Below are positions 6,521 to 60,842 of a stretch of DNA of 64,000 nt, piece by piece. The first letter of the stretch is position 1. Each line of letters starts with the position of its first letter. The stretch is from assembly GCA_964016885.1 (NCBI GenBank), contig OZ024742.1, positions 319,176,001 to 319,240,000 of the forward strand, given 5' to 3'. The notes beneath the pieces were generated by a model that saw only the letters and a program-made list of their open reading frames with translations, made no database searches and was not told where the DNA came from. Position numbers and translations under genes: made by a program. The DNA comes from Eledone cirrhosa. Taxonomy: Eukaryota.

Positions 6521-6704
6521 GAACATACACTATTTTTAAAGGTACCTAAGACTACATTATCCAATGTATCCTTCCTTTTTTAAGATAGTAGTGTGTTGTT
6601 TAATGGAAATTTGAGCGCTATTACTAGAGGATTGAGTAACTGTATAGCAACTTCCGCATTGCCTCATCATAAGTATGACCTTTTGAATATTTCTTTCTTC
6701 TTTT

Positions 6705-8266: not shown

Positions 8267-8295
8267 ACATCTTTTTTTTTCTTTTTTTTCCACAG

Positions 8296-9287: not shown

Positions 9288-10138
9288 AATAATATCACTT
9301 CAGATATTTCTTCCTTTCCAGATATATCTAAAGAGGTTAAATTTGGTAGACAAGTTTTACGCACAAGCAGTTCTTGTATTCTAAATCGTGTCGGTATATT
9401 GACAAATGTCTGTGCATCGATATCAGATACATCGAGGTGGGTCAGCTTAGATAGTTCACATAATATCGACACAAACTCATCATTATGTGATGCTCGCAAA
9501 TTGTACATAGACAAGCAACGTAACCGATCTTTGCATTTCCTTAAGGGAGAAATGTCATTGATAGGAGTCCCTGATATGTCAAGACTTTCAAGAGTCGGCA
9601 ATTCTTCAACTATTATTTCAAGTCCATGTTTATTGAATTCTGTGTTACTAACATTGAGGCTCTGTAAATTTTGAAGTTTTGCCAATGATATGACCACACA
9701 AAACTTGCTGCTACTAATAAAAGTACTATTACTTACATTCAACAAACGTAAGTTAGAAAGTGTCCACTCTCCAAGACAGCCAATAACATCATTTACAGCC
9801 ACTGATTTCAAACCAGTTATTTCCAGTTCAGATATTTTATGTGACTTTAGTATCCGTAGGCCCTTTGTCGTGAGCTGGGCATCACGAATTGACACTCGTT
9901 TCAAAATAGAAACACTTGGATCAAATAAACTTAACGTTTCATCATTCAGTTTACCCTTCTCACATAAACTCTGCAGAATCTGCTCTGATAACTTTCCATG
10001 GAAACAAACATCTGGATCTTTGAATACAAGCTTCCGGTTGCTTTTCTCCACTCCAGGTTGCACCTGACATAGGTTACCGATATTGTCACAAATAAAATCA
10101 ACACAACAGTCTTGGAGGCTGTTAGGAGTATCGTACAT
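9288..10138 (-). CDS. ZYG11: ZYG11-family (zyg-11 homolog B-like) CRL2 substrate receptor, first coding exon: VHL-box plus LRRs
   Basis: ORF 9284-10201 with ATG at 10138 (MYDTPNSLQDCCVDFI, a VHL/BC-box-like PxSLxxxC motif). LRRs include LQSLNVSNT, LESLDISGTPINDISPLRKCKDRLRCLSM and LTSLDISG. Acceptor ttttttcag gives exon start 10153; donor TT|gtaagta at 9287. Confidence 0.9.
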
Positions 10139-11638
10139 GATGTCTAGTGAAAACTGAAAAAAATTAGAAACAAGAATTAAATGGTAGTTACAAAGAAACA
10201 TTGGAGACTAAGTTAAACTATATAAGACAGGTTATCATTTGTAAACCTATTACAATATTAAACTGCTACTGTCATTAATAATCAAATCAACATACAAAAC
10301 CACATAGCCATGACAATTTTGTACCTGTTTTCATATTAAGTGTTGTACTTTGCACAGTTTTGGCAAGGTTTTACTAGCTGCATTCCCATCCTATCACCAA
10401 CCACTTTTCAGCATGGACTAGATGTATTATTCATGCCACCAGCACTCGAGAGGTTATCTTACCATACTGAAGGATCCTCTCTACCCTGTATTTGTTTTTA
10501 TTCAGAGTAACTGTTCTCCTAGATAGGTTGCCTTCATTTTGGCTTACGAAACCCACATCAACCCTGTGTTTATATATTTTTGATACTTTACATTTTCTAA
10601 GTTCTATTGATAAACCAATTAAAATTATTTAAAGTATTTTTTAATTATAAAAGCAAACCCTGATTTAGTATCAGTAATTTGTTTATACAATCAATTTTTT
10701 CTTTATATATATGTTCCTTCCATTATTATAATCTATTAAGCTTTTTGATATCATATTACCTGAAACCACCTACCCAGGATTTGATACAAAACTACTCATT
10801 CTAAATCCATCCATCATAATTATATTTTAAGAATATTTTGTTTAGTAATGTTCTAATTTTCCAGTTATTAATGAAAGGGTTAGTAATTTTTTTAATTCCT
10901 ACAAATATCTGAATATTTTCAAAATTAATTGAAACACATAGGCAGTGTATTTCATAAGAAATACAGTGACAAAAGGAATAATGCCAGTATTAGAAAACTT
11001 GTATTATGTTGCCCTGATCCAACAGACTTATAATAAAAAGTGTTTGTCACAAATATCCTGTTTATTTTTAAGACAATATATATATAGCACTGCTTTCTCC
11101 AAAGAGCCATGACATTGTTTAAGATACTAAGGTGTGATTTGAGTGAAATTTGGCTGCTACTTGTAGTAGGTCAAGCAATCACGTAGGGGCTCCCTCACTG
11201 GTTCATGAAATTTTATTGGGCTGATTGTGGCAATGATGAAAATTATAATTTATTTAAATTCTTCCTGTGTTTTACTTTTAATTGATTTATCTTTTACATT
11301 ACAATTCTTAATGTGTAACTTACTTAATAAGTAATAATTGTTTCTACTTTTGGCACAAGGCCAGCAATTACCCAGTGCATTACTGGTACTTTATTTTATC
11401 GACCCCATAAAGATGAAAGGCAAAGTTAACCTCGGAGGGGAGTAATAATACTCAGCTTTACTAAGGTAAATCAATGAAACAGATTAACCGAGTGAACATT
11501 TTGGAGTAGGGTAAAATATGATATTTGCTGCTCAACTTGTTTGGATTGTGATTGCAGAAGATAAGGCCAATATGGAATCAACTGGTACAAGGATAGTTTG
11601 GGGAATTATTATACTGAGAGGGCAACCCAGCACAGAGT

Positions 11639-36639: not shown

Positions 36640-37050
36640 ATAATGTTGTCGACACAAAAAGCACTAGGCCCACTCTGTATGTTGATCCGGTGCCACAACA
36701 AAAGTACCCAGTCCATCCTGTAAGGTGGTTGTGTTGGTGACATGAGAAAAAACACCCAGCCCACCCTGTAATTCAGTCATGCTGATGACAACAAAAAGCA
36801 CCTAGTCCACCCTGTAATGTGGTCATGCTGGTGACATGATAAAAGCCACTCAGTCCACCCTGTTAGATGGTTGTTTTGGTGTCACGATAAAAAGCACCTT
36901 GTCCACACCGGGCATTAGGAAGGGCATCCAGCTGTAGAAACCAAGTCAAAATCCATATGACCAAGATGTGGTCTTTGGTCATGACTTGTCTCATAACTTG
37001 ACAACCCGTCTAACACATGCAAGCGTGGAAAAATAGACAAATGATGATGA
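36640..37050 (+). mobile_element. RTE-tail repeat with tandem ~45-bp subunits. Related copies ~8916-9165 (-), 20040-20260, 20270-20520 (-), 24250-24840, 29290-29500, 31550-31740, 35550-35745, 37640-37835, 38175-38450, 63270-63430
   Basis: Shared aaaagcacccag..cacactgtaa..gtggttggcattaggaagggcatccagc..tagaaacc..catgc..gcatggaaaa..gacgttaaacgatgatg; the same sequence ends the RTE LINE at 1990-2170. Confidence 0.75.
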
Positions 37051-39575: not shown

Positions 39576-39663
39576 GGTTTATCTGAAGATTCTGAAACTA
39601 AGATTAAGGAACTGTCTCGTGCTGTTTCTGAGTTACAGAACATGCTCAAGGAAGCATCTGAAA
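39576..39663 (+). CDS. TPR: TPR exon 10 (88 nt)
   Basis: aacag / A|gtaaag; GLSEDSETKIKELSRAVSELQNMLKEASE. Confidence 0.88.
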
Positions 39664-39729
39664 GTAAAGAAGACTTTATTATTATTCTGTGTATTAAAAA
39701 TTGTCTAGCTTGAATTCTGTATTGTTGTG

Positions 39730-42700
39730 CTGTTGTGTGTGTGTGTATGTGTGTCTGTTGCTGTTCTGTTGTGTGTGTCTGATGCTGTTCTGTTGTGTGT
39801 GTTTGTTGGTGTTCTGTTGTGTGTGTCTGTTGCTGTTCTGTTGTGCGTGTCTGTTGATGTTCTGTTGTGTATGTCTGTTGGTGTTCTGTTGTGTGTGTCT
39901 GTTGGTGTTCTGTTGTGCGTGTCTGTTGATGTTCTGTTGTGTATGTCTGTTGATGTTCTGTTGTGTATGTCTGTTGGTGTTCTGTTGTGTATGTCTGTTG
40001 GTGTTCTGTTGTGTGTGTCTGTTGGTGTTCTGTTGTGTATGTCTGTTGATGTTCTGTTGTGTATGTCTGTTGATGTTCTGTTGTGTGTGTCTGTTGATGT
40101 TCTGTTGTGTGTGTCTGTTGGTGTTCTGTTGTGTATGTCTGTTGGTGTTCTGTTGTGTATGTCTGTTGGTGTTCTGTTGTGTGTGTCTGTTGATGTTCTG
40201 TTGTGCGTGTCTGTTGATGTTCTGTTGTGTATGTCTGTTGATGTTCTGTTGTGTATGTCTGTTGATGTTCTGTTGTGTATGTCTGTTGGTGTTCTGTTGT
40301 GTATGTCTGTTGGTGTTCTGTTGTGTGTGTCTGTTGATGTTCTGTTGTGTATGTCTGTTGCTGTTCTGTTGTGTATGTCTGTTGATGTTCTGTTGTGTAT
40401 GTCTGTTGCTGTTCTGTTGTGTATGTCTGTTGATGTTCTGTTGTGTGTGTCTGTTGCTGTTCTGTTGTGTGTGTCTGTTGCTGTTCTGTTGTCTGTGTCT
40501 GTAGATGTTCTGTTGTGTGTGTCTGTTGATGTTCTGTTGTGTGTGTCTGTTCTGTTGCTGTTGATGTTCTGTTGTGTGTGTCTGTTGATGTTCTGTTGTG
40601 CGTGTCTGTTGCTGTTCTGTTGTCTGTGTCTGTAGATGTTCTGTTGTGTGTGTCTGTTGATGTTCTGTTGTGTGTGTCTGTTGCTGTTCTGTTGTGTGTG
40701 TCTGTTGCTGTTCTGTTGTGTGTGTCTGTTGCTGTTCTGTTGTGTGTGTCTGTTGCTGTTCTGTTGTGTGTGTCTATTGATGTTCTGTTGTGTATGTCTG
40801 TTGATGTTCTGTTGTGTATGTCTGTTGATGTTCTGTTGTGTGTTTCTGTTGATGTTCTGTTGTGTATGTCTGTTGGTGTTCTGTTGTGTATGTATGTTGC
40901 TGTTCTGTTGTGTGTGTCTGTTGATGTTCTGTTGTGCGTGTCTGTTGATGTTCTGTTGTGTGTGTCTGTTGATGTTCTGTTGTGTGTCTGTTGATGTTCT
41001 GTTGTGTATGTCTGTTGTTCTGTTGTGTATGTCTGTCGATGTTCTGTTGTGTATGTCTGTTGATGTTCTGTTGTGTATGTCTGTTGATGTTCTGTTGCGT
41101 ATGTCTGTTGCTGTTCTGTTGTGTATGTCTGTTGGTGTTCTGTTGTGTATGTCTGTTGGTGTTCTGTTGTGTATGTCTGTTGCTGTTCTGTTGTGTGTGT
41201 CTGCTGATGTTCTGTTGTGCGTGTCTGTTGATGTTCTGTTGTGTGTGTCTGTTGCTGTTCTGTTGTGTATGTCTGTTGTTCTGTTGTGTATGTCTGTTGA
41301 TGTTCTGTTGTGTATGTCTGTTGATGTTCTGTTGTGTATGTCTGTTGCTGTTCTGTTGTGTATGTCTTGCTGTTCTGTTGTGTATGTCTGTTGCTGTTCT
41401 GTTGTGTGTGTCTGTTGATGTTCTGTTGTGCGTGTCTGTTGATGTTCTGTTGTGTATGTCTGTTGATGTTCTGCTGTGTATGTCTGTTGATGTTCTGTTG
41501 TGTATGTCTGTTGCTGTTCTGTTGTGTATGTCTGTTGGTGTTCTGTTGTGTATGTCTGTTGATGTTCTGTTGTGTATGTCTGTTGATGTTCTGTTGTGTG
41601 TGTCTGTTGCTGTTCTGTTGTGTATGTCTGTTGATGTTCTGTTGTGTATGTCTTGCTGTTCTGTTGTGTATGTCTGTTGCTGTTCTGTTGTGTGTGTCTG
41701 TTGATGTTCTGTTGTGTGTGTCTGTTGATGTTCTGTTGTGTATGTCTGTTGATGTTCTGTTGTGTATGTCTGTTGATGTTCTGTTGTGTGTGTCTGTTGC
41801 TGTTCTGTTGTGTGTGTCTGTTGCTGTTCTGTTGTGTTTATCTGTTGATGTTCTGTTGTGTGTGTCTGTTGATGTTCTGTTGTGTGTGTCTGTTGCTGTT
41901 CTGTTGTGTGTGTCTGTTGCTGTTCTGTTGCTGTTCTGTTGTGTGTATCTGTTGATGTTCTGTTGTGTGTGTCTGTTGATGTTCTGTTGTGTGTGTCTGT
42001 TGATGTTCTATTGTGTATGTCTGTTGATGTTCTGTTGTGTATGTCTGTTGATGTTCTGTTGTGTATGTCTGTTGATGTTCTGTTGTGTATGTCTGTTGAT
42101 GTTCTGTTGTGTATGTCTGTTGCTGTTATGTTGTGTATGTCTGTTGATGTTCTGTTGTGTATGTCTGTTGATGTTCTGTTGTGTATGTCTGTTGATGTTC
42201 TGTTGTGTGTGTCTGTTGGTGTTCTGTTGTGTGTGTCTGTTGCTGTTCTGTTGTGTATGTCTGTTGATGTTCTGTTGTGTGTGTCTGTTGCTGTTCTGTT
42301 GTGTGTATCTGTTGCTGTTCTGTTGTGTGTATCTGTTGATGTTCTGTTGTGTGTGTCTGTTGATGTTCTGTTGTGTGTGTCTGCTGCTGTTCTGTTGTGT
42401 GTGTCTGTTGCTGTTCTGTTGTGTGTGTCTGTTGCTGTTCTGTTGTTTGTGTCTGTTGTGTATGTCTGTTCTGTTGTGTGTGTCTGTTGCTGTTCTGTTG
42501 TGTGTATCTGTTGCTGTTCTGTTGTTTGTGTCTGTTGCTGTTCTGTTGTGTGTGTCTGTTGATGTTCTGTTGTGTATGTCTGTTGATGTTCTGTTGTGTG
42601 TGTCTGTTGATGTTCTGTTGTGTGTGTCTGTTGCTGTTCTGTTGTGTGTGTCTGTTGATGTTCTGTTGTGTGTGTCTGTTGATGTTCTGTTGTGTGTGTC

Positions 42701-45700
42701 TGTTGATGTTCTGTTGTGTGTGTCTGTTGATGTTCTGTTGTGTATGTCTGTTGATGTTCTGTTGTGCGTGTCTGTTGATGTTCTGTTGTGTATGTCTGTT
42801 GCTGTTCTGTTGTGTATGTCTGTTGCTGTTCTGTTGTGTGTGTCTGTTGATGTTCTGTTGTGTGTGTCTGTTGATGTTCTGTTGTGTGTGTCTGTTGATG
42901 TTCTGTTGTGTGTGTCTGTTGCTGTTCTGTTGTCTGTGTCTGTAGATGTTCTGTTGTGTGTGTCTGTTGATGTTCTGTTGTGTGTGTCTGTTGCTGTTCT
43001 GTTGTGTGTGTCTGTTGCTGTTCTGTTGTGTGTGTCTGTTGCTGTTCTGTTGTCTGTGTCTGTAGATGTTCTGTTGTGCGTGTCTGTTGATGTTCTGTTG
43101 TGTGTGTCTGTTGCTGTTCTGTTATGTGTGTCTGCTGTGTGTGTCTGTTGATGTTCTGTTGTGTGTGTCTGTTGCTGTTCTGTTGTGTGTGTCTATTGAT
43201 GTTCTGTTGTGTATGTCTGTTGGTGTTCTGTTGTGTATGTCTGTTGCTGTTCTGTTGTGTGTATCTGTTGATGTTCTGTTGTGTGTGTCTGTTGATGTTC
43301 TGTTGTGTATGTCTGTTGATGTTCTGTTGTCTGTGTCTGTTGCTGTTCTGTTGTGTGTGTCTGTTGCTGTTCTGTTGTGTGTATCTGTTGATGTTCTGTT
43401 GTGTGTGTCTCTGTTGATGTTCTATTGTGTATGTCTGTTGATGTTCTGTTGTGTATGTCTGTTGATGTTCTGTTGTGTATGTCTGTTGCTGTTCTGTTGT
43501 GTATGTCTGTTGCTGTTCTGTTGTGTATGTCTGTTGCTGTTATGTTGTGTATGTCTGTTGATGTTCTGTTGTGTATGTCTGTTGATGTTCTGTTGTGTGT
43601 GTCTGTTGGTGTTCTGTTGTGTGTGTCTGTTGCTGTTCTGTTGTGTATGTCTGTTGATGTTCTGTTGATGTTCTGTTGTGTATGTCTATTGATGTTCTGT
43701 TGTGTATGTCTGTTGATGTTCTGTTGATGTTCTGTTGTGTGTGTCTGTTGCTGTTCTGTTGTGTGTGTCTGTTGCTGTTCTGTTGTGTGTATCTGTTGAT
43801 GTTCTGTTGTGTGTGTCTGTTGATGTTCTGTTGTGTGTGTCTGTTGCTGTTCTGTTGTGTGTGTCTGTTGCTGTTCTGTTGTTTGTGTCTGTTGTGTGTG
43901 TCTGTTGATGTTCTGTTGTGTATGTCTGTTGATTTTCTGTTGTGTATGTCTTGCTGTTCTGTTGTGTATGTCTGTTGCTGTTCTGTTGTGTGTGTCTGTT
44001 GATGTTCTGTTTTGTGTGTCTGTTGCTGTTCTGTTGTCTGTGTCTGTAGATGTTCTGTTGTGTGTGTCTGTTGATGTTCTGTTGTGTGTGTCTGTTGCTG
44101 TTCTGTTGTGTGTGTCTGTTGCTGTTCTGTTGTCCGTGTCTGTTGATGTTCTGTTGTGTGTGTCTGTTGCTGTTCTGTTATGTGTGTCTGTTGATGTTCT
44201 GTTGTGTGTGTCTGTTGCTGTTCTGTTGTGTGTGTCTATTGATGTTCTGTTGTGTATGTCTGTCGATGTTCTGTTGTGTATGTCTGTTGGTGTTCTGTTG
44301 TGTATGTCTGTTGATGTTCTGTTGTGTGTGTCTGTTGATGTTCTGTTGTGTGTTTCTGTTGGTGTTCTGTTGTGTATGTCTGTTGATGTTCTGTTGTGTA
44401 TGTCTGTTGATGTTCTGTTGTGTATGTCTGTTGATGTTCTGTTGTGTATGTCTGTTGATGTTCTGTTGTGTATGTCTGTTGCTGTTCTGTTGTGTATGTC
44501 TGTTGATGTTCTGTTGTGTATGTCTGTTGCTGTTCTGTTGTGTATGTCTGTTGATGTTCTGTTGTGTATGTCTGTTGATGTTCTGTTGTGTATGTCTGTC
44601 GGTGTTCTGTTGTGTATGTATGTTGCGGATCTGTTGTGTGTGTCTGTTGATGTTCTGTTGTGCGTGTCTGTTGATGTTCTGTTGTGTGTGTCTGTTGCTG
44701 TTCTGTTGTGTATGTCTGTTGTTCTGTTGTGTATGTCTGTTGATGTTCTGTTGTGTATGTCTTTTGCTGTTCTGTTGTGTATGTCTGTTGATGTTCTGTT
44801 GTTTATGTCTTGCTGTTCTGTTGTGTATGTCTGTTGCTGTTCTGTTGTGTGTGTCTGTTGATGTTCTGTTGTGCGTGTCTGTTGATGTTCTGTTGTGTAT
44901 GTCTGTTGATGTTCTGTTGTGTATGTCTGTTGATGTTCTGTTGTGTATGTCTGTTGATGTTCTGTTGTGTATGTCTGTTGCTGTTCTGTTGAGTATGTCT
45001 GTTGGTGTTCTGTTGTGTATGTCTGTTGTTGTTCTGTTGTGTATGTCTGTTGATGTTCTGTTGTGTGTGTCTGTTGCTGTTCTGTTGTGTATGTCTGTTG
45101 ATGTTCTGTTGTTTATGTCTTGCTGTTCTGTTGTGTATGTCTGTTTCTGTTCTGTTGTGTGTGTCTGTTGCTGTTCTGTTGTGTGTGTCTGTTGCTGTTC
45201 TGTTGTGTGTGTCTGTTGATGTTCTGTTGTGTGTGTCTGTTGATGTTCTGTTGTGTATGTCTGTTGATGTTCTGTTGTGTATGTCTGTTGGTGTTCTGTT
45301 GTGTATGTCTGTTGCTGTTCTGTTGTGTATGTCTGTTGGTGTTCTGTTGTGTATGTCTGTTGCTGTTCTGTTGTGTATGTCAGTTGATGTTCTGTTGTGT
45401 ATGTCTGTTGCTGTTCTGTTGTGTATGTCTGTTGATGTTCTGTTGTGTATGTCTGTTGTGTATGTCTGTTGGTGTTCTGTTGTGTATGTCTGTTGTGTAT
45501 GTCTGTTGCTGTTCTGTTGTGTATGTCTGTTGATGTTCTGTTGTGTGTGTCTGTTGATGTTCTGTTGTGTATGTCTGTTGATGTTCTGTTGTGTATGTCT
45601 GTTGATGTTCTGTTGTGTATGTCTGTTGATGTTCTGTTGTGTATGTCTGTTGGTGTTCTGTTGTGTATGTCTGTTGCTGTTCTGTTGTGTATGTCTGTTG

Positions 45701-48700
45701 TTGTTCTGTTGTGTATGTCTGTTGATGTTCTGTTGTGTGTGTCTGTTGCTGTTCTGTTGTGTATGTCTATTGATGTTCTGTTGTGTATGTCTGTTGGTGT
45801 TCTGTTGTGTATGTCTGTTGGTGTTCTGTTGTGTATGTCTGTTGGTGTTCTGTTGTGTATGTCTGTTGCTGTTCTGTTGTGTATGTCTTTTGATGTTCTG
45901 TTGTGTATGTCTGTTGGTGTTCTGTTGTGTATGTCTGTTGCTGTTCTGTTGTGTATGTCTGTTGATGTTCTGTTGTGTGTGTCTGTTGCTGTTCTGTTGT
46001 GTGTGTCTGTTGCTGTTTTGTTGTGTGTGTCTGTTGCTGTTTTGTTGTATGTGTCTGTTGCTGTTCTGTTGTGTGTGTCTGTTGCTGTTCTGTTGTGTGT
46101 GTCTGTTGCTGTTCTGTTGTGTGTGTCTGTTGCTGTTCTGTTGTGTGTGTCTGTTGCTGTTCTGTTGTGTGTGTCTGTTCTGTTGTGTGTGTCTGTTGAT
46201 GTTCTGTTGTGTGTGTCTGTTGCTGTTCTGTTGTGTATGTCTGTCGATGTTCCGTTGTGTATGTCTGTTGGTGTTCTGTTGTGTATGTCTGTTGGTGTTC
46301 TGTTGTGTATGTCTGTTGATGTTCTGTTGTGTATGTCTGTTGATTTTCTGTTGTGTATGTCTGTTGGCGTTCTGTTGTGTATGTCTGTTGATGTTCTGTT
46401 GTGTATGTCTGTTGATGTTCTGTTGTGTGTGTCTGTTGATGTTCTGTTGTGTGTGTCTGTTGGTGTTCTGTTGTGTATGTCTGTTGGTGTTCTGTTGTGT
46501 ATGTCTGTTGGTGTTCTGTTGTGTGTGTCTGTTGATGTTCTGTTGTGCGTGTCTGTTGATGTTCTGTTGTGTATGTCTGTTGATGTTCTGTTGTGTATGT
46601 CTGTTGATGTTCTGTTGTGTATGTCTGTTGGTGTTCTGTTGTGTATGTCTGTTGGTGTTCTGTTGTGTGTGTCTGTTGATGTTCTGTTGTGTATGTCTGT
46701 TGCTGTTCTGTTGTGTATGTCTGTTGATGTTCTGTTGTGTATGTCTGTTGCTGTTCTGTTGTGTATGTCTGTTGATGTTCTGTTGTGTGTGTCTGTTGCT
46801 GTTCTGTTGTGTGTGTCTGTTGCTGTTCTGTTGTCTGTGTCTGTAGATGTTCTGTTGTGTGTGTCTGTTGATGTTCTGTTGTGTGTGTCTGTTCTGTTGC
46901 TGTTGATGTTCTGTTGTGTGTGTCTGTTGATGTTCTGTTGTGCGTGTCTGTTGCTGTTCTGTTGTCTGTGTCTGTAGATGTTCTGTTGTGTGTGTCTGTT
47001 GATGTTCTGTTGTGTGTGTCTGTTGCTGTTCTGTTGTGTGTGTCTGTTGCTGTTCTGTTGTGTGTGTCTGTTGCTGTTCTGTTGTGTGTGTCTGTTGCTG
47101 TTCTGTTGTGTGTGTCTATTGATGTTCTGTTGTGTATGTCTGTTGATGTTCTGTTGTGTATGTCTGTTGATGTTCTGTTGTGTGTTTCTGTTGATGTTCT
47201 GTTGTGTATGTCTGTTGGTGTTCTGTTGTGTATGTATGTTGCTGTTCTGTTGTGTGTGTCTGTTGATGTTCTGTTGTGCGTGTCTGTTGATGTTCTGTTG
47301 TGTGTGTCTGTTGATGTTCTGTTGATGTTCTGTTGTGTATGTCTGTTGTTCTGTTGTGTATGTCTGTCGATGTTCTGTTGTGTATGTCTGTTGGTGTTCT
47401 GTTGTGTATGTCTGTTGATGTTCTGTTGTGTGTGTCTGTTGATGTTCTGTTGTGTATGTCTGTTGGTGTTCTGTTGTGTATGTCTGTTGATGTTCTGTTG
47501 TGTATGTCTGTTGATGTTCTGTTGTGTATGTCTGTTGATGTTCTGTTGCGTATGTCTGTTGCTGTTCTGTTGTGTATGTCTGTTGGTGTTCTGTTGTGTA
47601 TGTCTGTTGGTGTTCTGTTGTGTATGTCTGTTGCTGTTCTGTTGTGTGTGTCTGCTGATGTTCTGTTGTGCGTGTCTGTTGATGTTCTGTTGTGTGTGTC
47701 TGTTGCTGTTCTGTTGTGTATGTCTGTTGTTCTGTTGTGTATGTCTGTTGATGTTCTGTTGTGTATGTCTGTTGATGTTCTGTTGTGTATGTCTGTTGCT
47801 GTTCTGTTGTGTATGTCTGTTGATGTTCTGTTGTGTATGTCTTGCTGTTCTGTTGTGTATGTCTGTTGCTGTTCTGTTGTGTGTGTCTGTTGATGTTCTG
47901 TTGTGCGTGTCTGTTGATGTTCTGTTGTGTATGTCTGTTGATGTTCTGCTGTGTATGTCTGTTGATGTTCTGTTGTGTATGTCTGTTGCTGTTCTGTTGT
48001 GTATGTCTGTTGGTGTTCTGTTGTGTATGTCTGTTGATGTTCTGTTGTGTATGTCTGTTGATGTTCTGTTGTGTGTGTCTGTTGCTGTTCTGTTGTGTAT
48101 GTCTGTTGATGTTCTGTTGTGTATGTCTTGCTGTTCTGTTGTGTATGTCTGTTGCTGTTCTGTTGTGTGTGTCTGTTGATGTTCTGTTGTGTGTGTCTGT
48201 TGATGTTCTGTTGTGTATGTCTGTTGATGTTCTGTTGTGTATGTCTGTTGATGTTCTGTTGTGTGTGTCTGTTGCTGTTCTGTTGTGTGTGTCTGTTGCT
48301 GTTCTGTTGTGTTTATCTGTTGATGTTCTGTTGTGTGTGTCTGTTGATGTTCTGTTGTGTGTGTCTGTTGCTGTTCTGTTGTGTGTGTCTGTTGCTGTTC
48401 TGTTGTGTGTGTCTGTTGCTGTTCTGTTGTGTGTATCTGTTGATGTTCTGTTGTGTGTGTCTGTTGATGTTCTGTTGTGTGTGTCTGTTGATGTTCTATT
48501 GTGTATGTCTGTTGATGTTCTGTTGTGTATGTCTGTTGATGTTCTGTTGTGTATGTCTGTTGATGTTCTGTTGTGTATGTCTGTTGATGTTCTGTTGTGT
48601 ATGTCTGTTGCTGTTATGTTGTGTATGTCTGTTGATGTTCTGTTGTGTATGTCTGTTGATGTTCTGTTGTGTATGTCTGTTGATGTTCTGTTGTGTGTGT

Positions 48701-51700
48701 CTGTTGGTGTTCTGTTGTGTGTGTCTGTTGCTGTTCTGTTGTGTATGTCTGTTGATGTTCTGTTGTGTGTGTCTGTTGCTGTTCTGTTGTGTGTATCTGT
48801 TGCTGTTCTGTTGTGTGTATCTGTTGATGTTCTGTTGTGTGTGTCTGTTGATGTTCTGTTGTGTGTGTCTGCTGCTGTTCTGTTGTGTGTGTCTGTTGCT
48901 GTTCTGTTGTGTGTGTCTGTTGCTGTTCTGTTGTTTGTGTCTGTTGTGTATGTCTGTTCTGTTGTGTGTGTCTGTTGCTGTTCTGTTGTGTGTATCTGTT
49001 GCTGTTCTGTTGTTTGTGTCTGTTGCTGTTCTGTTGATGTTCTGTTGTGTATGTCTGTTGATGTTCTGTTGTGTGTGTCTGTTGATGTTCTGTTGTGTGT
49101 GTCTGTTGCTGTTCTGTTGTGTGTGTCTGTTGATGTTCTGTTGTGTGTGTCTGTTGATGTTCTGTTGTGTGTGTCTGTTGATGTTCTGTTGTGTGTGTCT
49201 GTTGATGTTCTGTTGTGTATGTCTGTTGATGTTCTGTTGTGCGTGTCTGTTGATGTTCTGTTGTGTATGTCTGTTGCTGTTCTGTTGTGTATGTCTGTTG
49301 CTGTTCTGTTGTGTGTGTCTGTTGATGTTCTGTTGTGTGTGTCTGTTGATGTTCTGTTGTGTGTGTCTGTTGCTGTTCTGTTGTCTGTGTCTGTAGACGT
49401 TCTGTTGTGTGTGTCTGTTGATGTTCTGTTGTGTGTGTCTGTTGATGTTCTGTTGTGTGTGTCTGTTGCTGTTCTGTTGTGTATGTCTGTTGATGTTCTG
49501 TTGTGTATGTCTGTTGATGTTCTGTTGTGTGTGTCTGTTGATGTTCTGTTGTGTGTGTCTGTTGGTGTTCTGTTGTGTATGTCTGTTGGTGTTCTGTTGT
49601 GTATGTCTGTTGGTGTTCTGTTGTGTGTGTCTGTTGATGTTCTGTTGTGCGTGTCTGTTGATGTTCTGTTGTGTATGTCTGTTGATGTTCTGTTGTGTAT
49701 GTCTGTTGATGTTCTGTTGTGTATGTCTGTTGGTGTTCTGTTGTGTATGTCTGTTGCTGTTCTGTTGTCTGTGTCTGTAGATGTTCTGTTGATGTTCTGT
49801 TGTGTGTGTCTGTTGCTGTTCTGTTATGTGTGTCTGTTGATGTTCTGTTGCTGTTCTGTTGTGTGTGTCTGTTGATGTTCTGTTGTGTGTGTCTGTTGAT
49901 GTTCTGTTGTGTGTGTCTGTTGCTGTTCTGTTGTCTGTGTCTGTAGATGTTCTGTTGTGTGTGTCTGTTGATGTTCTGTTGTGTGTGTCTGTTGCTGTTC
50001 TGTTGTGTGTGTCTGTTGCTGTTCTGTTGTGTGTGTCTGTTGCTGTTCTGTTGTCTGTGTCTGTAGATGTTCTGTTGTGCGTGTCTGTTGATGTTCTGTT
50101 GTGTGTGTCTGTTGCTGTTCTGTTATGTGTGTCTGCTGTGTGTGTCTGTTGATGTTCTGTTGTGTGTGTCTGTTGCTGTTCTGTTGTGTGTGTCTATTGA
50201 TGTTCTGTTGTGTATGTCTGTTGGTGTTCTGTTGTGTATGTCTGTTGATGTTCTGTTGTGCGTGTCTGTTGCTGTTCTGTTGTGTGTATCTGTTGATGTT
50301 CTGTTGTGTGTGTCTGTTGATGTTCTGTTGTGTATGTCTGTTGATGTTCTGTTGTCTGTGTCTGTTGCTGTTCTGTTGTGTGTGTCTGTTGCTGTTCTGT
50401 TGTGTGTATCTGTTGATGTTCTGTTGTGTGTGTCTCTGTTGATGTTCTATTGTGTATGTCTGTTGATGTTCTGTTGTGTATGTCTGTTGATGTTCTGTTG
50501 TGTATGTCTGTTGCTGTTCTGTTGTGTATGTCTGTTGCTGTTCTGTTGTGTATGTCTGTTGCTGTTATGTTGTGTATGTCTGTTGATGTTCTGTTGTGTA
50601 TGTCTGTTGATGTTCTGTTGTGTGTGTCTGTTGGTGTTCTGTTGTGTGTGTCTGTTGCTGTTCTGTTGTGTATGTCTGTTGATGTTCTGTTGTGTATGTC
50701 TATTGATGTTCTGTTGTGTATGTCTGTTGATGTTCTGTTGATGTTCTGTTGTGTGTGTCTGTTGCTGTTCTGTTGTGTGTGTCTGTTGCTGTTCTGTTGT
50801 GTGTATCTGTTGATGTTCTGTTGTGTGTGTCTGTTGATGTTCTGTTGTGTGTGTCTGTTGCTGTTCTGTTGTGTGTGTCTGTTGCTGTTCTGTTGTTTGT
50901 GTCTGTTGTGTGTGTCTGTTGATGTTCTGTTGTGTATGTCTGTTGATTTTCTGTTGTGTATGTCTTGCTGTTCTGTTGTGTATGTCTGTTGCTGTTCTGT
51001 TGTGTGTGTCTGTTGATGTTCTGTTTTGTGTGTCTGTTGCTGTTCTGTTGTCTGTGTCTGTAGATGTTCTGTTGTGTGTGTCTGTTGATGTTCTGTTGTG
51101 TGTGTCTGTTGCTGTTCTGTTGTGTGTGTCTGTTGCTGTTCTGTTGTCCGTGTCTGTTGATGTTCTGTTGTGTGTGTCTGTTGCTGTTCTGTTATGTGTG
51201 TCTGTTGATGTTCTGTTGTGTGTGTCTGTTGCTGTTCTGTTGTGTGTGTCTATTGATGTTCTGTTGTGTATGTCTGTCGATGTTCTGTTGTGTATGTCTG
51301 TTGGTGTTCTGTTGTGTATGTCTGTTGATGTTCTGTTGTGTGTGTCTGTTGATGTTCTGTTGTGTGTTTCTGTTGGTGTTCTGTTGTGTATGTCTGTTGA
51401 TGTTCTGTTGTGTATGTCTGTTGATGTTCTGTTGTGTATGTCTGTTGATGTTCTGTTGTGTATGTCTGTTGATGTTCTGTTGTGTATGTCTGTTGCTGTT
51501 CTGTTGTGTATGTCTGTTGATGTTCTGTTGTGTATGTCTGTTGCTGTTCTGTTGTGTATGTCTGTTGATGTTCTGTTGTGTATGTCTGTTGATGTTCTGT
51601 TGTGTATGTCTGTCGGTGTTCTGTTGTGTATGTATGTTGCGGATCTGTTGTGTGTGTCTGTTGATGTTCTGTTGTGCGTGTCTGTTGATGTTCTGTTGTG

Positions 51701-54700
51701 TGTGTCTGTTGCTGTTCTGTTGTGTATGTCTGTTGTTCTGTTGTGTATGTCTGTTGATGTTCTGTTGTGTATGTCTTTTGCTGTTCTGTTGTGTATGTCT
51801 GTTGATGTTCTGTTGTTTATGTCTTGCTGTTCTGTTGTGTATGTCTGTTGCTGTTCTGTTGTGTGTGTCTGTTGATGTTCTGTTGTGCGTGTCTGTTGAT
51901 GTTCTGTTGTGTATGTCTGTTGATGTTCTGTTGTGTATGTCTGTTGATGTTCTGTTGTGTATGTCTGTTGATGTTCTGTTGTGTATGTCTGTTGCTGTTC
52001 TGTTGAGTATGTCTGTTGGTGTTCTGTTGTGTATGTCTGTTGTTGTTCTGTTGTGTATGTCTGTTGATGTTCTGTTGTGTGTGTCTGTTGCTGTTCTGTT
52101 GTGTATGTCTGTTGATGTTCTGTTGTTTATGTCTTGCTGTTCTGTTGTGTATGTCTGTTTCTGTTCTGTTGTGTGTGTCTGTTGCTGTTCTGTTGTGTGT
52201 GTCTGTTGCTGTTCTGTTGTGTGTGTCTGTTGATGTTCTGTTGTGTGTGTCTGTTGATGTTCTGTTGTGTATGTCTGTTGATGTTCTGTTGTGTATGTCT
52301 GTTGGTGTTCTGTTGTGTATGTCTGTTGCTGTTCTGTTGTGTATGTCTGTTGGTGTTCTGTTGTGTATGTCTGTTGCTGTTCTGTTGTGTATGTCAGTTG
52401 ATGTTCTGTTGTGTATGTCTGTTGCTGTTCTGTTGTGTATGTCTGTTGATGTTCTGTTGTGTATGTCTGTTGGTGTTCTGTTGTGTATGTCTGTTGGTGT
52501 TCTGTTGTGTATGTCTGTTGTGTATGTCTGTTGCTGTTCTGTTGTGTATGTCTGTTGATGTTCTGTTGTGTGTGTCTGTTGATGTTCTGTTGTGTATGTC
52601 TGTTGATGTTCTGTTGTGTATGTCTGTTGATGTTCTGTTGTGTATGTCTGTTGATGTTCTGTTGTGTATGTCTGTTGGTGTTCTGTTGTGTATGTCTGTT
52701 GCTGTTCTGTTGTGTATGTCTGTTGTTGTTCTGTTGTGTATGTCTGTTGATGTTCTGTTGTGTGTGTCTGTTGCTGTTCTGTTGTGTATGTCTATTGATG
52801 TTCTGTTGTGTATGTCTGTTGGTGTTCTGTTGTGTATGTCTGTTGGTGTTCTGTTGTGTATGTCTGTTGGTGTTCTGTTGTGTATGTCTGTTGCTGTTCT
52901 GTTGTGTATGTCTTTTGATGTTCTGTTGTGTATGTCTGTTGGTGTTCTGTTGTGTATGTCTGTTGCTGTTCTGTTGTGTATGTCTGTTGATGTTCTGTTG
53001 TGTGTGTCTGTTGCTGTTCTGTTGTGTGTGTCTGTTGCTGTTTTGTTGTGTGTGTCTGTTGCTGTTTTGTTGTATGTGTCTGTTGCTGTTCTGTTGTGTG
53101 TGTCTGTTGCTGTTCTGTTGTGTGTGTCTGTTGCTGTTCTGTTGTGTGTGTCTGTTGCTGTTCTGTTGTGTGTGTCTGTTGCTGTTCTGTTGTGTGTGTC
53201 TGTTCTGTTGTGTGTGTCTGTTGATGTTCTGTTGTGTGTGTCTGTTGCTGTTCTGTTGTGTATGTCTGTCGATGTTCCGTTGTGTATGTCTGTTGGTGTT
53301 CTGTTGTGTATGTCTGTTGGTGTTCTGTTGTGTATGTCTGTTGATGTTCTGTTGTGTATGTCTGTTGATTTTCTGTTGTGTATGTCTGTTGGCGTTCTGT
53401 TGTGTATGTCTGTTGATGTTCTGTTGTGTATGTCTGTTGATGTTCTGTTGTGTGTGTCTGTTGATGTTCTGTTGTGTGTGTCTGTTGGTGTTCTGTTGTG
53501 TATGTCTGTTGGTGTTCTGTTGTGTATGTCTGTTGGTGTTCTGTTGTGTGTGTCTGTTGATGTTCTGTTGTGCGTGTCTGTTGATGTTCTGTTGTGTATG
53601 TCTGTTGATGTTCTGTTGTGTATGTCTGTTGATGTTCTGTTGTGTATGTCTGTTGGTGTTCTGTTGTGTATGTCTGTTGGTGTTCTGTTGTGTGTGTCTG
53701 TTGATGTTCTGTTGTGTATGTCTGTTGCTGTTCTGTTGTGTATGTCTGTTGATGTTCTGTTGTGTATGTCTGTTGCTGTTCTGTTGTGTATGTCTGTTGA
53801 TGTTCTGTTGTGTGTGTCTGTTGCTGTTCTGTTGTGTGTGTCTGTTGCTGTTCTGTTGTCTGTGTCTGTAGATGTTCTGTTGTGTGTGTCTGTTGATGTT
53901 CTGTTGTGTGTGTCTGTTCTGTTGCTGTTGATGTTCTGTTGTGTGTGTCTGTTGATGTTCTGTTGTGCGTGTCTGTTGCTGTTCTGTTGTCTGTGTCTGT
54001 AGATGTTCTGTTGTGTGTGTCTGTTGATGTTCTGTTGTGTGTGTCTGTTGCTGTTCTGTTGTGTGTGTCTGTTGCTGTTCTGTTGTGTGTGTCTGTTGCT
54101 GTTCTGTTGTGTGTGTCTGTTGCTGTTCTGTTGTGTGTGTCTATTGATGTTCTGTTGTGTATGTCTGTTGATGTTCTGTTGTGTATGTCTGTTGATGTTC
54201 TGTTGTGTGTTTCTGTTGATGTTCTGTTGTGTATGTCTGTTGGTGTTCTGTTGTGTATGTATGTTGCTGTTCTGTTGTGTGTGTCTGTTGATGTTCTGTT
54301 GTGCGTGTCTGTTGATGTTCTGTTGTGTGTGTCTGTTGATGTTCTGTTGTGTGTCTGTTGATGTTCTGTTGTGTATGTCTGTTGTTCTGTTGTGTATGTC
54401 TGTCGATGTTCTGTTGTGTATGTCTGTTGGTGTTCTGTTGTGTATGTCTGTTGATGTTCTGTTGTGTGTGTCTGTTGATGTTCTGTTGTGTATGTCTGTT
54501 GGTGTTCTGTTGTGTATGTCTGTTGATGTTCTGTTGTGTATGTCTGTTGATGTTCTGTTGTGTATGTCTGTTGATGTTCTGTTGCGTATGTCTGTTGCTG
54601 TTCTGTTGTGTATGTCTGTTGGTGTTCTGTTGTGTATGTCTGTTGGTGTTCTGTTGTGTATGTCTGTTGCTGTTCTGTTGTGTGTGTCTGCTGATGTTCT

Positions 54701-57700
54701 GTTGTGCGTGTCTGTTGATGTTCTGTTGTGTGTGTCTGTTGCTGTTCTGTTGTGTATGTCTGTTGTTCTGTTGTGTATGTCTGTTGATGTTCTGTTGTGT
54801 ATGTCTGTTGATGTTCTGTTGTGTATGTCTGTTGCTGTTCTGTTGTGTATGTCTGTTGATGTTCTGTTGTGTATGTCTTGCTGTTCTGTTGTGTATGTCT
54901 GTTGCTGTTCTGTTGTGTGTGTCTGTTGATGTTCTGTTGTGCGTGTCTGTTGATGTTCTGTTGTGTATGTCTGTTGATGTTCTGCTGTGTATGTCTGTTG
55001 ATGTTCTGTTGTGTATGTCTGTTGGTGTTCTGTTGTGTATGTCTGTTGATGTTCTGTTGTGTATGTCTGTTGATGTTCTGTTGTGTGTGTCTGTTGCTGT
55101 TCTGTTGTGTATGTCTGTTGATGTTCTGTTGTGTATGTCTTGCTGTTCTGTTGTGTATGTCTGTTGCTGTTCTGTTGTGTGTGTCTGTTGATGTTCTGTT
55201 GTGTGTGTCTGTTGATGTTCTGTTGTGTATGTCTGTTGATGTTCTGTTGTGTATGTCTGTTGATGTTCTGTTGTGTGTGTCTGTTGCTGTTCTGTTGTGT
55301 GTGTCTGTTGCTGTTCTGTTGTGTTTATCTGTTGATGTTCTGTTGTGTGTGTCTGTTGATGTTCTGTTGTGTGTGTCTGTTGCTGTTCTGTTGTGTGTGT
55401 CTGTTGCTGTTCTGTTGTGTGTGTCTGTTGCTGTTCTGTTGTGTGTATCTGTTGATGTTCTGTTGTGTGTGTCTGTTGATGTTCTGTTGTGTGTGTCTGT
55501 TGATGTTCTATTGTGTATGTCTGTTGATGTTCTGTTGTGTATGTCTGTTGATGTTCTGTTGTGTATGTCTGTTGATGTTCTGTTGTGTATGTCTGTTGAT
55601 GTTCTGTTGTGTATGTCTGTTGCTGTTATGTTGTGTATGTCTGTTGATGTTCTGTTGTGTATGTCTGTTGATGTTCTGTTGTGTATGTCTGTTGATGTTC
55701 TGTTGTGTGTGTCTGTTGGTGTTCTGTTGTGTGTGTCTGTTGCTGTTCTGTTGTGTATGTCTGTTGATGTTCTGTTGTGTGTGTCTGTTGATGTTCTGTT
55801 GTGTGTGTCTGTTGCTGTTCTGTTGTGTGTATCTGTTGCTGTTCTGTTGTGTGTATCTGTTGATGTTCTGTTGTGTGTGTCTGTTGATGTTCTGTTGTGT
55901 GTGTCTGCTGCTGTTCTGTTGTGTGTGTCTGTTGCTGTTCTGTTGTGTGTGTCTGTTGCTGTTCTGTTGTTTGTGTCTGTTGTGTATGTCTGTTCTGTTG
56001 TGTGTGTCTGTTGCTGTTCTGTTGTGTGTATCTGTTGCTGTTCTGTTGTTTGTGTCTGTTGCTGTTCTGTTGATGTTCTGTTGTGTATGTCTGTTGATGT
56101 TCTGTTGTGTGTGTCTGTTGATGTTCTGTTGTGTGTGTCTGTTGCTGTTCTGTTGTGTGTGTCTGTTGATGTTCTGTTGTGTGTGTCTGTTGATGTTCTG
56201 TTGTGTGTGTCTGTTGATGTTCTGTTGTGTGTGTCTGTTGATGTTCTGTTGTGTATGTCTGTTGATGTTCTGTTGTGCGTGTCTGTTGATGTTCTGTTGT
56301 GTATGTCTGTTGCTGTTCTGTTGTGTATGTCTGTTGCTGTTCTGTTGTGTGTGTCTGTTGATGTTCTGTTGTGTGTGTCTGTTGATGTTCTGTTGTGTGT
56401 GTCTGTTGCTGTTCTGTTGTCTGTGTCTGTAGACGTTCTGTTGTGTGTGTCTGTTGATGTTCTGTTGTGTGTGTCTGTTGCTGTTCTGTTGTGTGTGTCT
56501 GTTGTGTGTGTCTGTTGCTGTTCTGTTGTCTGTGTCTGTAGATGTTCTGTTGATGTTCTGTTGTGTGTGTCTGTTGCTGTTCTGTTATGTGTGTCTGTTG
56601 ATGTTCTGTTGCTGTTCTGTTGTGTGTGTCTGTTGATGTTCTGTTGTGTGTGTCTGTTGATGTTCTGTTGTGTGTGTCTGTTGCTGTTCTGTTGTCTGTG
56701 TCTGTAGATGTTCTGTTGTGTGTGTCTGTTGATGTTCTGTTGTGTGTGTCTGTTGCTGTTCTGTTGTGTGTGTCTGTTGCTGTTCTGTTGTGTGTGTCTG
56801 TTGCTGTTCTGTTGTCTGTGTCTGTAGATGTTCTGTTGTGCGTGTCTGTTGATGTTCTGTTGTGTGTGTCTGTTGCTGTTCTGTTATGTGTGTCTGCTGT
56901 GTGTGTCTGTTGATGTTCTGTTGTGTGTGTCTGTTGCTGTTCTGTTGTGTGTGTCTATTGATGTTCTGTTGTGTATGTCTGTTGGTGTTCTGTTGTGTAT
57001 GTCTGTTGATGTTCTGTTGTGCGTGTCTGTTGCTGTTCTGTTGTGTGTATCTGTTGATGTTCTGTTGTGTGTGTCTGTTGATGTTCTGTTGTGTATGTCT
57101 GTTGATGTTCTGTTGTCTGTGTCTGTTGCTGTTCTGTTGTGTGTGTCTGTTGCTGTTCTGTTGTGTGTATCTGTTGATGTTCTGTTGTGTGTGTCTCTGT
57201 TGATGTTCTATTGTGTATGTCTGTTGATGTTCTGTTGTGTATGTCTGTTGATGTTCTGTTGTGTATGTCTGTTGCTGTTCTGTTGTGTATGTCTGTTGCT
57301 GTTCTGTTGTGTATGTCTGTTGCTGTTATGTTGTGTATGTCTGTTGATGTTCTGTTGTGTATGTCTGTTGATGTTCTGTTGTGTGTGTCTGTTGGTGTTC
57401 TGTTGTGTGTGTCTGTTGCTGTTCTGTTGTGTATGTCTGTTGATGTTCTGTTGATGTTCTGTTGTGTATGTCTATTGATGTTCTGTTGTGTATGTCTGTT
57501 GATGTTCTGTTGATATTCTGTTGTGTGTGTCTGTTGCTGTTCTGTTGTGTGTGTCTGTTGCTGTTCTGTTGTGTGTATCTGTTGATGTTCTGTTGTGTGT
57601 GTCTGTTGATGTTCTGTTGTGTGTGTCTGTTGCTGTTCTGTTGTGTGTGTCTGTTGCTGTTCTGTTGTTTGTGTCTGTTGTGTGTGTCTGTTGATGTTCT

Positions 57701-60510
57701 GTTGTGTATGTCTGTTGATTTTCTGTTGTGTATGTCTTGCTGTTCTGTTGTGTATGTCTGTTGCTGTTCTGTTGTGTGTGTCTGTTGATGTTCTGTTTTG
57801 TGTGTCTGTTGCTGTTCTGTTGTCTGTGTCTGTAGATGTTCTGTTGTGTGTGTCTGTTGATGTTCTGTTGTGTGTGTCTGTTGCTGTTCTGTTGCTGTTC
57901 TGTTGTCCGTGTCTGTTGATGTTCTGTTGTGTGTGTCTGTTGCTGTTCTGTTATGTGTGTCTGTTGATGTTCTGTTGTGTGTGTCTGTTGCTGTTCTGTT
58001 GTGTGTGTCTATTGATGTTCTGTTGTGTATGTCTGTCGATGTTCTGTTGTGTATGTCTGTTGGTGTTCTGTTGTGTATGTCTGTTGATGTTCTGTTGTGT
58101 GTGTCTGTTGATGTTCTGTTGTGTGTTTCTGTTGGTGTTCTGTTGTGTATGTCTGTTGATGTTCTGTTGTGTATGTCTGTTGATGTTCTGTTGTGTATGT
58201 CTGTTGATGTTCTGTTGTGTATGTCTGTTGATGTTCTGTTGTGTATGTCTGTTGCTGTTCTGTTGTGTATGTCTGTTGATGTTCTGTTGTGTATGTCTGT
58301 TGCTGTTCTGTTGTGTATGTCTGTTGATGTTCTGTTGTGTATGTCTGTTGATGTTCTGTTGTGTATGTCTGTCGGTGTTCTGTTGTGTATGTATGTTGCG
58401 GATCTGTTGTGTGTGTCTGTTGATGTTCTGTTGTGCGTGTCTGTTGATGTTCTGTTGTGTGTGTCTGTTGCTGTTCTGTTGTGTATGTCTGTTGTTCTGT
58501 TGTGTATGTCTGTTGATGTTCTGTTGTGTATGTCTTTTGCTGTTCTGTTGTGTATGTCTGTTGATGTTCTGTTGTTTATGTCTTGCTGTTCTGTTGTGTA
58601 TGTCTGTTGCTGTTCTGTTGTGTGTGTCTGTTGATGTTCTGTTGTGCGTGTCTGTTGATGTTCTGTTGTGTATGTCTGTTGATGTTCTGTTGTGTATGTC
58701 TGTTGATGTTCTGTTGTGTATGTCTGTTGATGTTCTGTTGTGTATGTCTGTTGCTGTTCTGTTGAGTATGTCTGTTGGTGTTCTGTTGTGTATGTCTGTT
58801 GTTGTTCTGTTGTGTATGTCTGTTGATGTTCTGTTGTGTGTGTCTGTTGCTGTTCTGTTGTGTATGTCTGTTGATGTTCTGTTGTTTATGTCTTGCTGTT
58901 CTGTTGTGTATGTCTGTTTCTGTTCTGTTGTGTGTGTCTGTTGCTGTTCTGTTGTGTGTGTCTGTTGCTGTTCTGTTGTGTGTGTCTGTTGATGTTCTGT
59001 TGTGTGTGTCTGTTGATGTTCTGTTGTGTATGTCTGTTGATGTTCTGTTGTGTATGTCTGTTGGTGTTCTGTTGTGTATGTCTGTTGCTGTTCTGTTGTG
59101 TATGTCTGTTGGTGTTCTGTTGTGTATGTCTGTTGCTGTTCTGTTGTGTATGTCAGTTGATGTTCTGTTGTGTATGTCTGTTGCTGTTCTGTTGTGTATG
59201 TCTGTTGATGTTCTGTTGTGTATGTCTGTTGGTGTTCTGTTGTGTATGTCTGTTGGTGTTCTGTTGTGTATGTCTGTTGTGTATGTCTGTTGCTGTTCTG
59301 TTGTGTATGTCTGTTGATGTTCTGTTGTGTGTGTCTGTTGATGTTCTGTTGTGTATGTCTGTTGATGTTCTGTTGTGTATGTCTGTTGATGTTCTGTTGT
59401 GTATGTCTGTTGATGTTCTGTTGTGTATGTCTGTTGGTGTTCTGTTGTGTATGTCTGTTGCTGTTCTGTTGTGTATGTCTGTTGTTGTTCTGTTGTGTAT
59501 GTCTGTTGATGTTCTGTTGTGTGTGTCTGTTGCTGTTCTGTTGTGTATGTCTATTGATGTTCTGTTGTGTATGTCTGTTGGTGTTCTGTTGTGTATGTCT
59601 GTTGGTGTTCTGTTGTGTATGTCTGTTGGTGTTCTGTTGTGTATGTCTGTTGCTGTTCTGTTGTGTATGTCTTTTGATGTTCTGTTGTGTATGTCTGTTG
59701 GTGTTCTGTTGTGTATGTCTGTTGCTGTTCTGTTGTGTATGTCTGTTGATGTTCTGTTGTGTGTGTCTGTTGCTGTTCTGTTGTGTGTGTCTGTTGCTGT
59801 TTTGTTGTGTGTGTCTGTTGCTGTTTTGTTGTATGTGTCTGTTGCTGTTCTGTTGTGTGTGTCTGTTGCTGTTCTGTTGTGTGTGTCTGTTGCTGTTCTG
59901 TTGTGTGTGTCTGTTGCTGTTCTGTTGTGTGTGTCTGTTGCTGTTCTGTTGTGTGTGTCTGTTCTGTTGTGTGTGTCTGTTGATGTTCTGTTGTGTGTGT
60001 CTGTTGCTGTTCTGTTGTGTATGTCTGTCGATGTTCCGTTGTGTATGTCTGTTGGTGTTCTGTTGTGTATGTCTGTTGGTGTTCTGTTGTGTATGTCTGT
60101 TGATGTTCTGTTGTGTATGTCTGTTGATTTTCTGTTGTGTATGTCTGTTGGCGTTCTGTTGTGTATGTCTGTTGTGTATGTCTGTTGATGTTCTGTTGTG
60201 TATGTCTGTTGATGTTCTGTTGTGTATGTTTGCTGTTCTGTTGTGTATGTCTGTTGATGTTCTGTTGTGTATGTCTGTTGGTGTTCTGTTGTGTATGTGT
60301 GTTGCTGTTCTGTTGTGTATGTCTGTTGATGTTCTGTTGTATATGTCTGTTGTGTATGTCTGTTGCTGTTCTGTTGTGTATGTCTGTTGATGTTCTGTTG
60401 TGTATGTCTGTTGCTGTTCTGTTGTGTATGTCTGTTGATGTTCTGTTGTATATGTCTGTTGTGTATGTCTGTTGCTGTTCTGTTGTGTATGTCTGTTGAT
60501 GTTCTGTCGT
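39730..60510 (+). repeat. ~20.8 kb minisatellite array, 24-bp unit GTTCTGTTGTGTRTGTCTGTTGVT, with ~6.3-7.0 kb higher-order repeat, inside TPR intron 10
   Basis: Directly visible. Length/24 gives roughly 860 units. Rare variants recur at a fixed long period, e.g. GCGGAT at 44625, 51639 and 58398. Confidence 0.98.
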
Positions 60511-60773
60511 GTCTTCTTTGTCAGGTTTAAGCATACGTTATTTAATAATTGTATACATGTAAGCTGCCATCATATGAGTGCTATTCATTCTGTTATTTGC
60601 CTGTATATTAGTGGTACTTTCAGAATCTGTGAAGATTGTTCTGCATACATACATGTAGCTTTTGTGTTTTATTTTTATGTAGAATAATTTTGTAGGTATA
60701 GGACTTTGAAGCTGCTCTGAAGCTATATAGTATATTATATTGTTTTTTTTTAATGTTTTTTTTTTGTATTTAG

Positions 60774-60842
60774 ATCAAACCAAACTGGAAGCTTCGAAGG
60801 ATTTGGAAAAAACAAAATATTTGCAACAGCTTGAGATTAAAG
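60774..60842 (+). CDS. TPR: TPR exon 11 (69 nt)
   Basis: T-rich tract ending tttag / G|gtaaat; (N)QTKLEASKDLEKTKYLQQLEIK; phase 1 matches exon 10. Confidence 0.82.

Follow-up and report, generated by a model that had tools for sequence, protein, structure and literature searches.

The host gene and its tenth intron

Intron 10 of a cephalopod TPR gene is 21 kb long and consists almost wholly of tandem repeat, which raises the question of how such an intron arose and whether the repeat does anything for its gene. A sequence-only reading of the window (the whole 64,000-nt stretch of DNA analysed, G000:C3:319176001-319240000, within a 3.0-Gb assembly) had taken it for a rare housekeeping-gene case of satellite intron gigantism, akin to that of Drosophila Y genes.

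The plus strand of the window carries 14 exons between positions 27866 and 63122, the 5' part of the gene, which were read from the sequence as one open frame of 479 aa with AG/GT ends. Exons 14 and 13 are 59% and 47% identical, respectively, to P0001, whose source name is nucleoprotein TPR; the homolog search with exon 14 gave one match among 21 candidates. PF07926 has a single match in the genome (36.5 bits, above the cut-off), which is on the TPR strand, 28 kb beyond the window. PF07926 and the TPR homology together place the gene with TPR/Mlp1/Mlp2 and, judged from these matches, the host gene is TPR, as the earlier reading had it. It is single-copy in the genome assembly. TPR continues for at least 75 kb past the window, where its exons are candidates matched by eye to P0001, and the whole gene appears to exceed 110 kb.

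Intron 10 (39664-60773) is flanked by exon 10 (39576-39663, 88 nt, single copy in the genome) and exon 11 (60774-60842, 69 nt), all on the plus strand. It is a GT-AG intron of phase 1 and 21,110 nt, with its GT at 39664 and its AG ending at 60773. Both this length and its rank as the tenth intron had been predicted, and they are borne out by the 14-exon open frame and by the position of exon 10 in a contig of the public run X4 (see below). The other 12 introns among exons 1-14 measure 237-2,713 nt. A range of 0.2-2.7 kb had been given for the remaining TPR introns; it is correct within the window and too narrow beyond it, where an intron of about 9.8 kb lies between candidate exons further down the gene. 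Two further intronic minisatellites, likewise placed by candidate exons, were found in TPR past the window: a 60/120-mer of about 1 kb (L010:3379-4335) that ends about 20 nt before its acceptor, and a 23-mer of 3.1 kb (L016:489-3614) that ends shortly before its acceptor.

Elsewhere in the window, the minus strand holds a 307-aa open frame (9287-10207) with Zer-1-like leucine-rich repeats (PF25013, E 1.9e-15). This frame is likely to be a large exon of a ZYG11/ZER1-like gene arranged head to head with TPR. Translations of the plus strand at 509-1768, inspected by eye, contain broken pieces of a LINE-type reverse transcriptase, and similar pieces occur in TPR introns and at other loci. Short diverged tandem repeats were seen at 8299-8593 (21/63-mer) and 36700-36906 (48-mer); 48-mer repeats come back across the genome sample described below.

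A locus-specific 24-bp minisatellite

The array occupies positions 39748-60512 (20,765 nt; period 24, 863 copies, 85% match), which is 98% of the 21,110 nt of intron 10. It begins 84 nt past the donor and ends 261 nt ahead of exon 11, and the intron minus the array measures 345 nt. These values agree with the earlier estimates of about 20.8 kb for the array, about 330 nt for the array-free intron and about 260 nt between the array and the acceptor. The start had been put about 70 nt past the donor; the array is preceded by a TG-microsatellite-like lead-in (39720-39747, plus strand). This lead-in was recognized from its sequence, and of the intron parts in which (TG)5+ runs were counted, just the 5' flank has one. 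The TG-rich lead-in is likely to have been the seed from which the array originated.

No N occurs anywhere in the window. The 835 anchor-to-anchor intervals of the array fall into 64 unit types, five of which are dominant. Among the 60 types inspected, no foreign sequence or TE was found and all are variants of the repeat, in keeping with the earlier remark that no TE interrupts the array. The 24-mer itself is composed of two subunits of 13 and 11 nt that have a common 7-nt core.

A genome-wide search for the unit, which had been proposed as a check, was run with a 34-nt pattern. It returned 526 exact matches (a search of this kind would miss diverged relatives of the unit), and all 526 are in this array; there were 0 matches on the reverse strand and 0 for a control pattern. 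As the pattern is confined to the array, the array likely arose in place. Minisatellites, or VNTRs, have units of roughly 10-100 bp arranged head to tail. The TPR array has a 24-bp unit arranged head to tail at one locus, interspersed unit variants together with internal duplications, and a position within a spliced intron. Based on these results, it is a locus-specific minisatellite rather than a satellite family, and the term satellite, used for it previously, was dropped. Two other candidates were rejected: a multi-locus satellite family, because every exact match to the unit pattern falls in one array, and a coding role, because the reading frames of the array contain low-complexity repeats only, with 14-176 stops.

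Three blocks and the growth of the array

The array had been described as a single 24-bp tandem array. It is not homogeneous and is made up of three near-identical blocks on the plus strand: block 1 at 40049-46390 (6,342 nt), block 2 at 46391-53415 (7,025 nt) and block 3 at 53416-60174 (6,759 nt). These are preceded by an unduplicated head (39748-40048, 301 nt, marked by singleton 15-mers) and followed by an unduplicated tail (60175-60512, 338 nt). Prefix and suffix lengths define a 22-nt microhomology at the first block junction (46369-46390), and the same junction occurs again at about 53394-53415. In the array, 324 15-mers have exactly three copies each and form 87 clusters, 29 to a block, and 29 rare variants are common to all three blocks. 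Exact repeats of at least 300 nt account for 95% of the bases.

In pairwise alignments, the blocks are separated by 14 indel events, one clean substitution (at 57515, private to block 3) and three further mismatches at indel edges. Most of the indels measure 11, 13 or 24 nt, and the 11- and 13-nt steps equal the two subunits of the 24-mer; longer ones measure about 110, 251 and 275 nt. The 275-nt insertion (49462-49736), which is private to block 2, copies the block start from about 3.1 kb upstream (diagonals 3102 and 3923). Because one substitution in 20,148 nt contrasts with 29 shared variants in about 6.7 kb, the array of about 7 kb would be far older than its triplication. It is likely that this array was copied twice, and recently. 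The recent expansion proposed earlier is supported for the last growth step, which looks recent. Before the triplication, intron 10 would have been about 7.3-7.7 kb long, shorter than the TPR intron of about 9.8 kb downstream.

We consider it probable that TPR intron 10 is filled by a 24-bp minisatellite confined to one locus and arranged in three near-identical blocks of about 7 kb, and that this minisatellite is spliced out through the normal sites, with two kb-scale tandem duplications as its likely recent history and the role of a tolerated passenger, not a regulator, as its likely present state. In this scheme, a TG-rich microsatellite behind the donor would have given rise to the 24-bp unit of 13- and 11-nt subunits. 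The unit would then have been amplified in place to about 7 kb, gathering about 29 rare variants; this unit-scale growth, ahead of the kb-scale duplication, may have proceeded by slippage. Next, as is visible in the block structure, a segment of 6.3-7.0 kb underwent two rounds of head-to-tail copying, both at one 22-nt microhomology, the likely mechanism being unequal sister exchange or template switching. The aligned blocks indicate that they subsequently diverged, mostly by gain or loss of 11, 13 or 24 nt or of longer unit runs. The 14 indel events between the blocks suggest that the array is unstable. Polymorphism of its length is plausible; one assembled allele was seen, its copy number is that of the assembly, and the true length may be 14 or 21 kb.

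Splicing and sequence signals

The junction 39663^60774, which had been named as a check on the predicted intron, is used. A 7,422-nt contig of run X4 joins these two positions and contains the end of exon 9, exon 10 (at 896-983 of the contig) and then the first 30 nt of exon 11. The place of exon 10 agrees with the summed exon lengths, and exon 14 is found with 0 differences where exons 11-13 predict it. None of the runs with matches is recorded as RNA; X4 was taken to be RNA because its contig covers exons only. X4 comes from one sample, other than that of X1-X3, whose allele length may differ. X4, the sole run with spliced cover, has just the normal junction, with the qualification that assembled contigs lose rare splice forms. 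Run X5 (organism B) had matches to exons 11-14 and to some stretches of intron, but no exon 10 contig. A 31-nt match of this run at 39715-39745 was rejected as chance, as it is TG-rich and the sequence upstream is unlike.

The sense strand of the array is 54% T/U and 31% G. AG is found 25 times in 20.8 kb (1.2 per kb, where seven other TPR introns have 52 per kb), AATAAA 0 times (compared with 14 in the same seven introns), and no ATTAAA or GTRAG is present on the array sense strand. The (UG)4 runs of the array number 311, and 10.2 kb of other TPR introns contain none; no (UG)5 run is present inside the array. When scored with crude, home-made matrices (from 29 donors), the 22 YAG sites of the array reach 2.8-3.2, values that the scores of real TPR acceptors (1.0-8.5) encompass. 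Just six donor-like sites attain the lowest real donor score; GTATGT hexamers number about 440, most of them scoring lower than real donors. A 480-nt piece of the array, one of about 43 such stretches, gave a fold centroid of -0.7 kcal/mol (z -1.57). Intron 10 is likely harmless, and the cause would be that its sense strand offers few processing signals and forms little RNA structure. TDP-43/CELF-type proteins, if bound to the UG-rich RNA, would further mask weak cryptic sites. Signal-poor tolerance is not a general rule, since the sense strands of two other intronic arrays, those of SPT6 and a CLAMP-domain gene (see below), are not UG-rich. At transcription rates of 1-3.8 kb/min, intron 10 would add about 5-21 min to a gene of more than 110 kb.

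Long arrays elsewhere in the genome

The prevalence of such arrays was estimated from 80 evenly spaced, blindly chosen 10-kb windows, of which 67 are on the four largest chromosomes, hence over-weighted. Tandem repeats make up 25.8% of the bases in these windows. An array of at least 5 kb is present in 9 of the 80 (95% range 5-20%), and 6 of the 80 are filled. Eight arrays, namely seven of the nine long ones and one of 4 kb, were extended to lengths of 4, 14, 38.6, about 47, at least 50, at least 96, at least 102 and at least 142 kb. Gap-free examples include a 27/30-mer of at least 142 kb (G000:C1, about 19.93-20.07 Mb), a 71-mer of at least 102 kb (G000:C3, about 28.91-29.01 Mb) and a 7-mer of at least 50 kb (G000:C4, about 139.98-140.03 Mb). 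Kb-scale exact internal repeats occur in all seven long comparison arrays, with 22-84% of bases in repeats of at least 300 nt.

Two of the four arrays for which both flanks were seen are intronic. The larger is a 38.6-kb array with a 42-bp unit (G000:C1:39,996,806-40,035,436; L124, L038, L125-L127), located in a predicted SPT6 intron, with the SPT6_acidic exon on one side and, on the other, downstream exons that continue to the HTH_44 exon. It has about 20 interruptions, some of them repeated, and its unit presents an AG/GT acceptor-donor motif, similar to a recursive splice site, 684 times on the sense strand. The other is a 14.2-kb array with a 27-bp unit (G000:C2:298,001,879-298,016,086, minus strand; L073, L151) in a predicted intron between two CLAMP-domain exons. 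It begins about 118 nt past the donor, and its pattern is single-locus (43/43 matches). Both resemble the TPR array in being intronic and in having kb-scale internal duplications. They differ from it in that their units are unrelated to that of TPR, whose array is the cleanest of them. Around the 79-mer and 40-mer arrays, flank exon scans found no genes; these scans were weak, with 10 of 24 candidates in one list and none in the other Pfam-scanned. At about 30.009 Mb of G000:C12 (L113:9316-9444, minus strand), an ankyrin-like exon with a donor was observed 3.6 kb ahead of an array of at least 96 kb with a 52-bp unit, and this locus possibly holds a much larger array-filled intron.

The two intronic arrays in the 67 windows on the four largest chromosomes give a rough estimate of about 2,300 intronic arrays of such size on these chromosomes (95% range 280-8,400). 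Such introns are not a property of every housekeeping gene, since the nucleoporin genes Nup192 (matches spanning about 21 kb) and Nup84 (about 9 kb) are compact. The TPR array is unexceptional in this genome.

Comparison with human intronic VNTRs

The closest match to the TPR array is the VNTR in intron 3 of human CACNA1C, which is reported to have a 30-bp unit, common alleles of 5.7 kb and a longest type of 13-61 kb (PMC11118589). The same report describes kb-scale tandem duplications in it, one allele having a third copy with identical breakpoints. Both arrays are intronic and single-locus, with interspersed unit variants and kb-scale tandem duplication. The TPR array differs in that it takes up 98% of its intron, lies 84 nt from the donor, has an essential nucleoporin gene as its host and is represented by one assembled allele. 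The VNTR in intron 18 of human ABCA7 has a unit of about 25 bp in 11-330 copies, and its length is reported to be associated with aberrant splicing (PMC13747324). It is similar to the TPR array in unit size, intronic position and complex internal variant order, but is shorter than the 863 copies of TPR, whose contig has just the normal junction. No literature on the TPR array or on cephalopod intronic minisatellites was found in a search that lay mostly outside subscription journals.

Alternative explanations

If the animal carried a two-block array of about 14 kb, an assembler that stacked its two haplotypes would have produced a third block and made block 2 a chimera. False duplication is a known assembly error, and some details of block 2 are consistent with it: its early part is nearer to block 3 (block 1 differs from the other two at 6 sites, block 3 at 2), its later part leans less to block 3 (1 versus 2), and the longest exact match in the array (2,287 nt) runs across the block 2 end and the junction there. 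The shift from 6:2 to 1:2 is insignificant, however (Fisher p = 0.49), and unequal crossing-over in the animal itself would leave the same pattern. Contigs of the flanks show 3 differences from the assembly in 3,082 nt (X1) and 4 in 3,080 nt (X3), or about 0.1%, which predicts 6-8 allele substitutions over 6.3 kb where one was seen (Poisson P 0.003-0.015; with coalescent variance, P 0.21-0.26). The window is also free of N gaps. The 22-nt overlap is too short for assembler invention, so that at least one duplication is likely real. We regard stacked haplotypes as an unlikely source of the third block. That the whole array is foreign to TPR and reached its place between exons 10 and 11 by mis-scaffolding is scarcely credible. 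No single read was seen to span exon 10 to exon 11, and runs X2 and X3 provided no contig for the 5' flank (a filter may drop records). Nevertheless, there is no N gap, the array emerges gradually from the TG-rich lead-in and is bounded by a head and a tail of its own, the unit pattern is nowhere else in the genome, and 990-nt contigs of X1 and X3 continue past the 3' flank by 37 nt in the direction of the array.

A different objection is that the array is not a passenger, and that its nascent RNA, being rich in UG, either brings in dedicated RNA-binding proteins or slows the output of TPR in the manner of the Drosophila Y loops. The composition of the sense RNA (54% U and 31% G, with (UG)4 runs that are lacking in the other TPR introns counted) would suit such recruitment. 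Precedents are the repression of cryptic exons by TDP-43 via dinucleotide repeats (PMC5959245) and the service of Blanks and Heph to Y-loop genes (PMC6508621). As in kl-3, kl-5 and ORY, the polymerase crosses intronic tandem-repeat DNA in TPR (PMC6508621, PMC11207136), and intron 10 is filled with it. However, the Drosophila Y introns are described as megabase-sized, composed of simple satellites (AATAT, AAGAC) and spermatocyte-specific (PMC6508621, PMC11207136), and their genes as exceeding 4 Mb and taking about 3.5 days to transcribe (PMC11207136), whereas TPR intron 10 has 21 kb, a private unit and a broadly needed gene and is about 100-fold smaller. At 21,110 nt it is outside the range of hundreds of kb to Mb that marks gigantism of the Drosophila type. 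That two thirds of the array length is recent copy speaks against a long-established dedicated programme; (UG)5 runs are absent from the array, and similar arrays of unrelated sequence occupy other introns, the one in SPT6 being larger. The proposed kinship with Drosophila Y genes and the supposed rarity of the case were not supported, and a functional role of this kind is very unlikely. The preferred reading is that the minisatellite is tolerated in intron 10 and spliced out with it.

Significance of the array and its class

The TPR array alone matters little, as long intronic minisatellites with kb-scale duplications are known in humans and that of TPR is spliced out. Its three-block structure and its locus specificity are new. 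It is a clean example of a class that is seemingly widespread in this genome, and the genome-wide class is the better lead. A bolder proposal, which is possible but on the whole doubtful, is that there has been a lineage-wide explosion of private minisatellites growing by kb-scale tandem duplication, that these account for roughly one tenth of the genome and fill the introns of thousands of genes, including the essential genes TPR and SPT6, and that the TPR array segregates as alleles of 7, 14 and 21 kb. If thousands of introns carry private arrays of 5-100 kb, part of the genome size would be explained, such arrays would likely have been missed in short-read assemblies, and many natural length alleles would be available to assess the cost of a long repeat intron to an essential gene. 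Segregation of the TPR array at the three lengths would itself provide a natural test of the effect of intron length or repeat RNA on a housekeeping gene.

Arrays of another kind were also seen in the sample. Two windows on two chromosomes (L070 and L050) are filled by arrays of period 196 and period 1,723, apparently of shared sequence, and these perhaps represent a true multi-locus satellite family.
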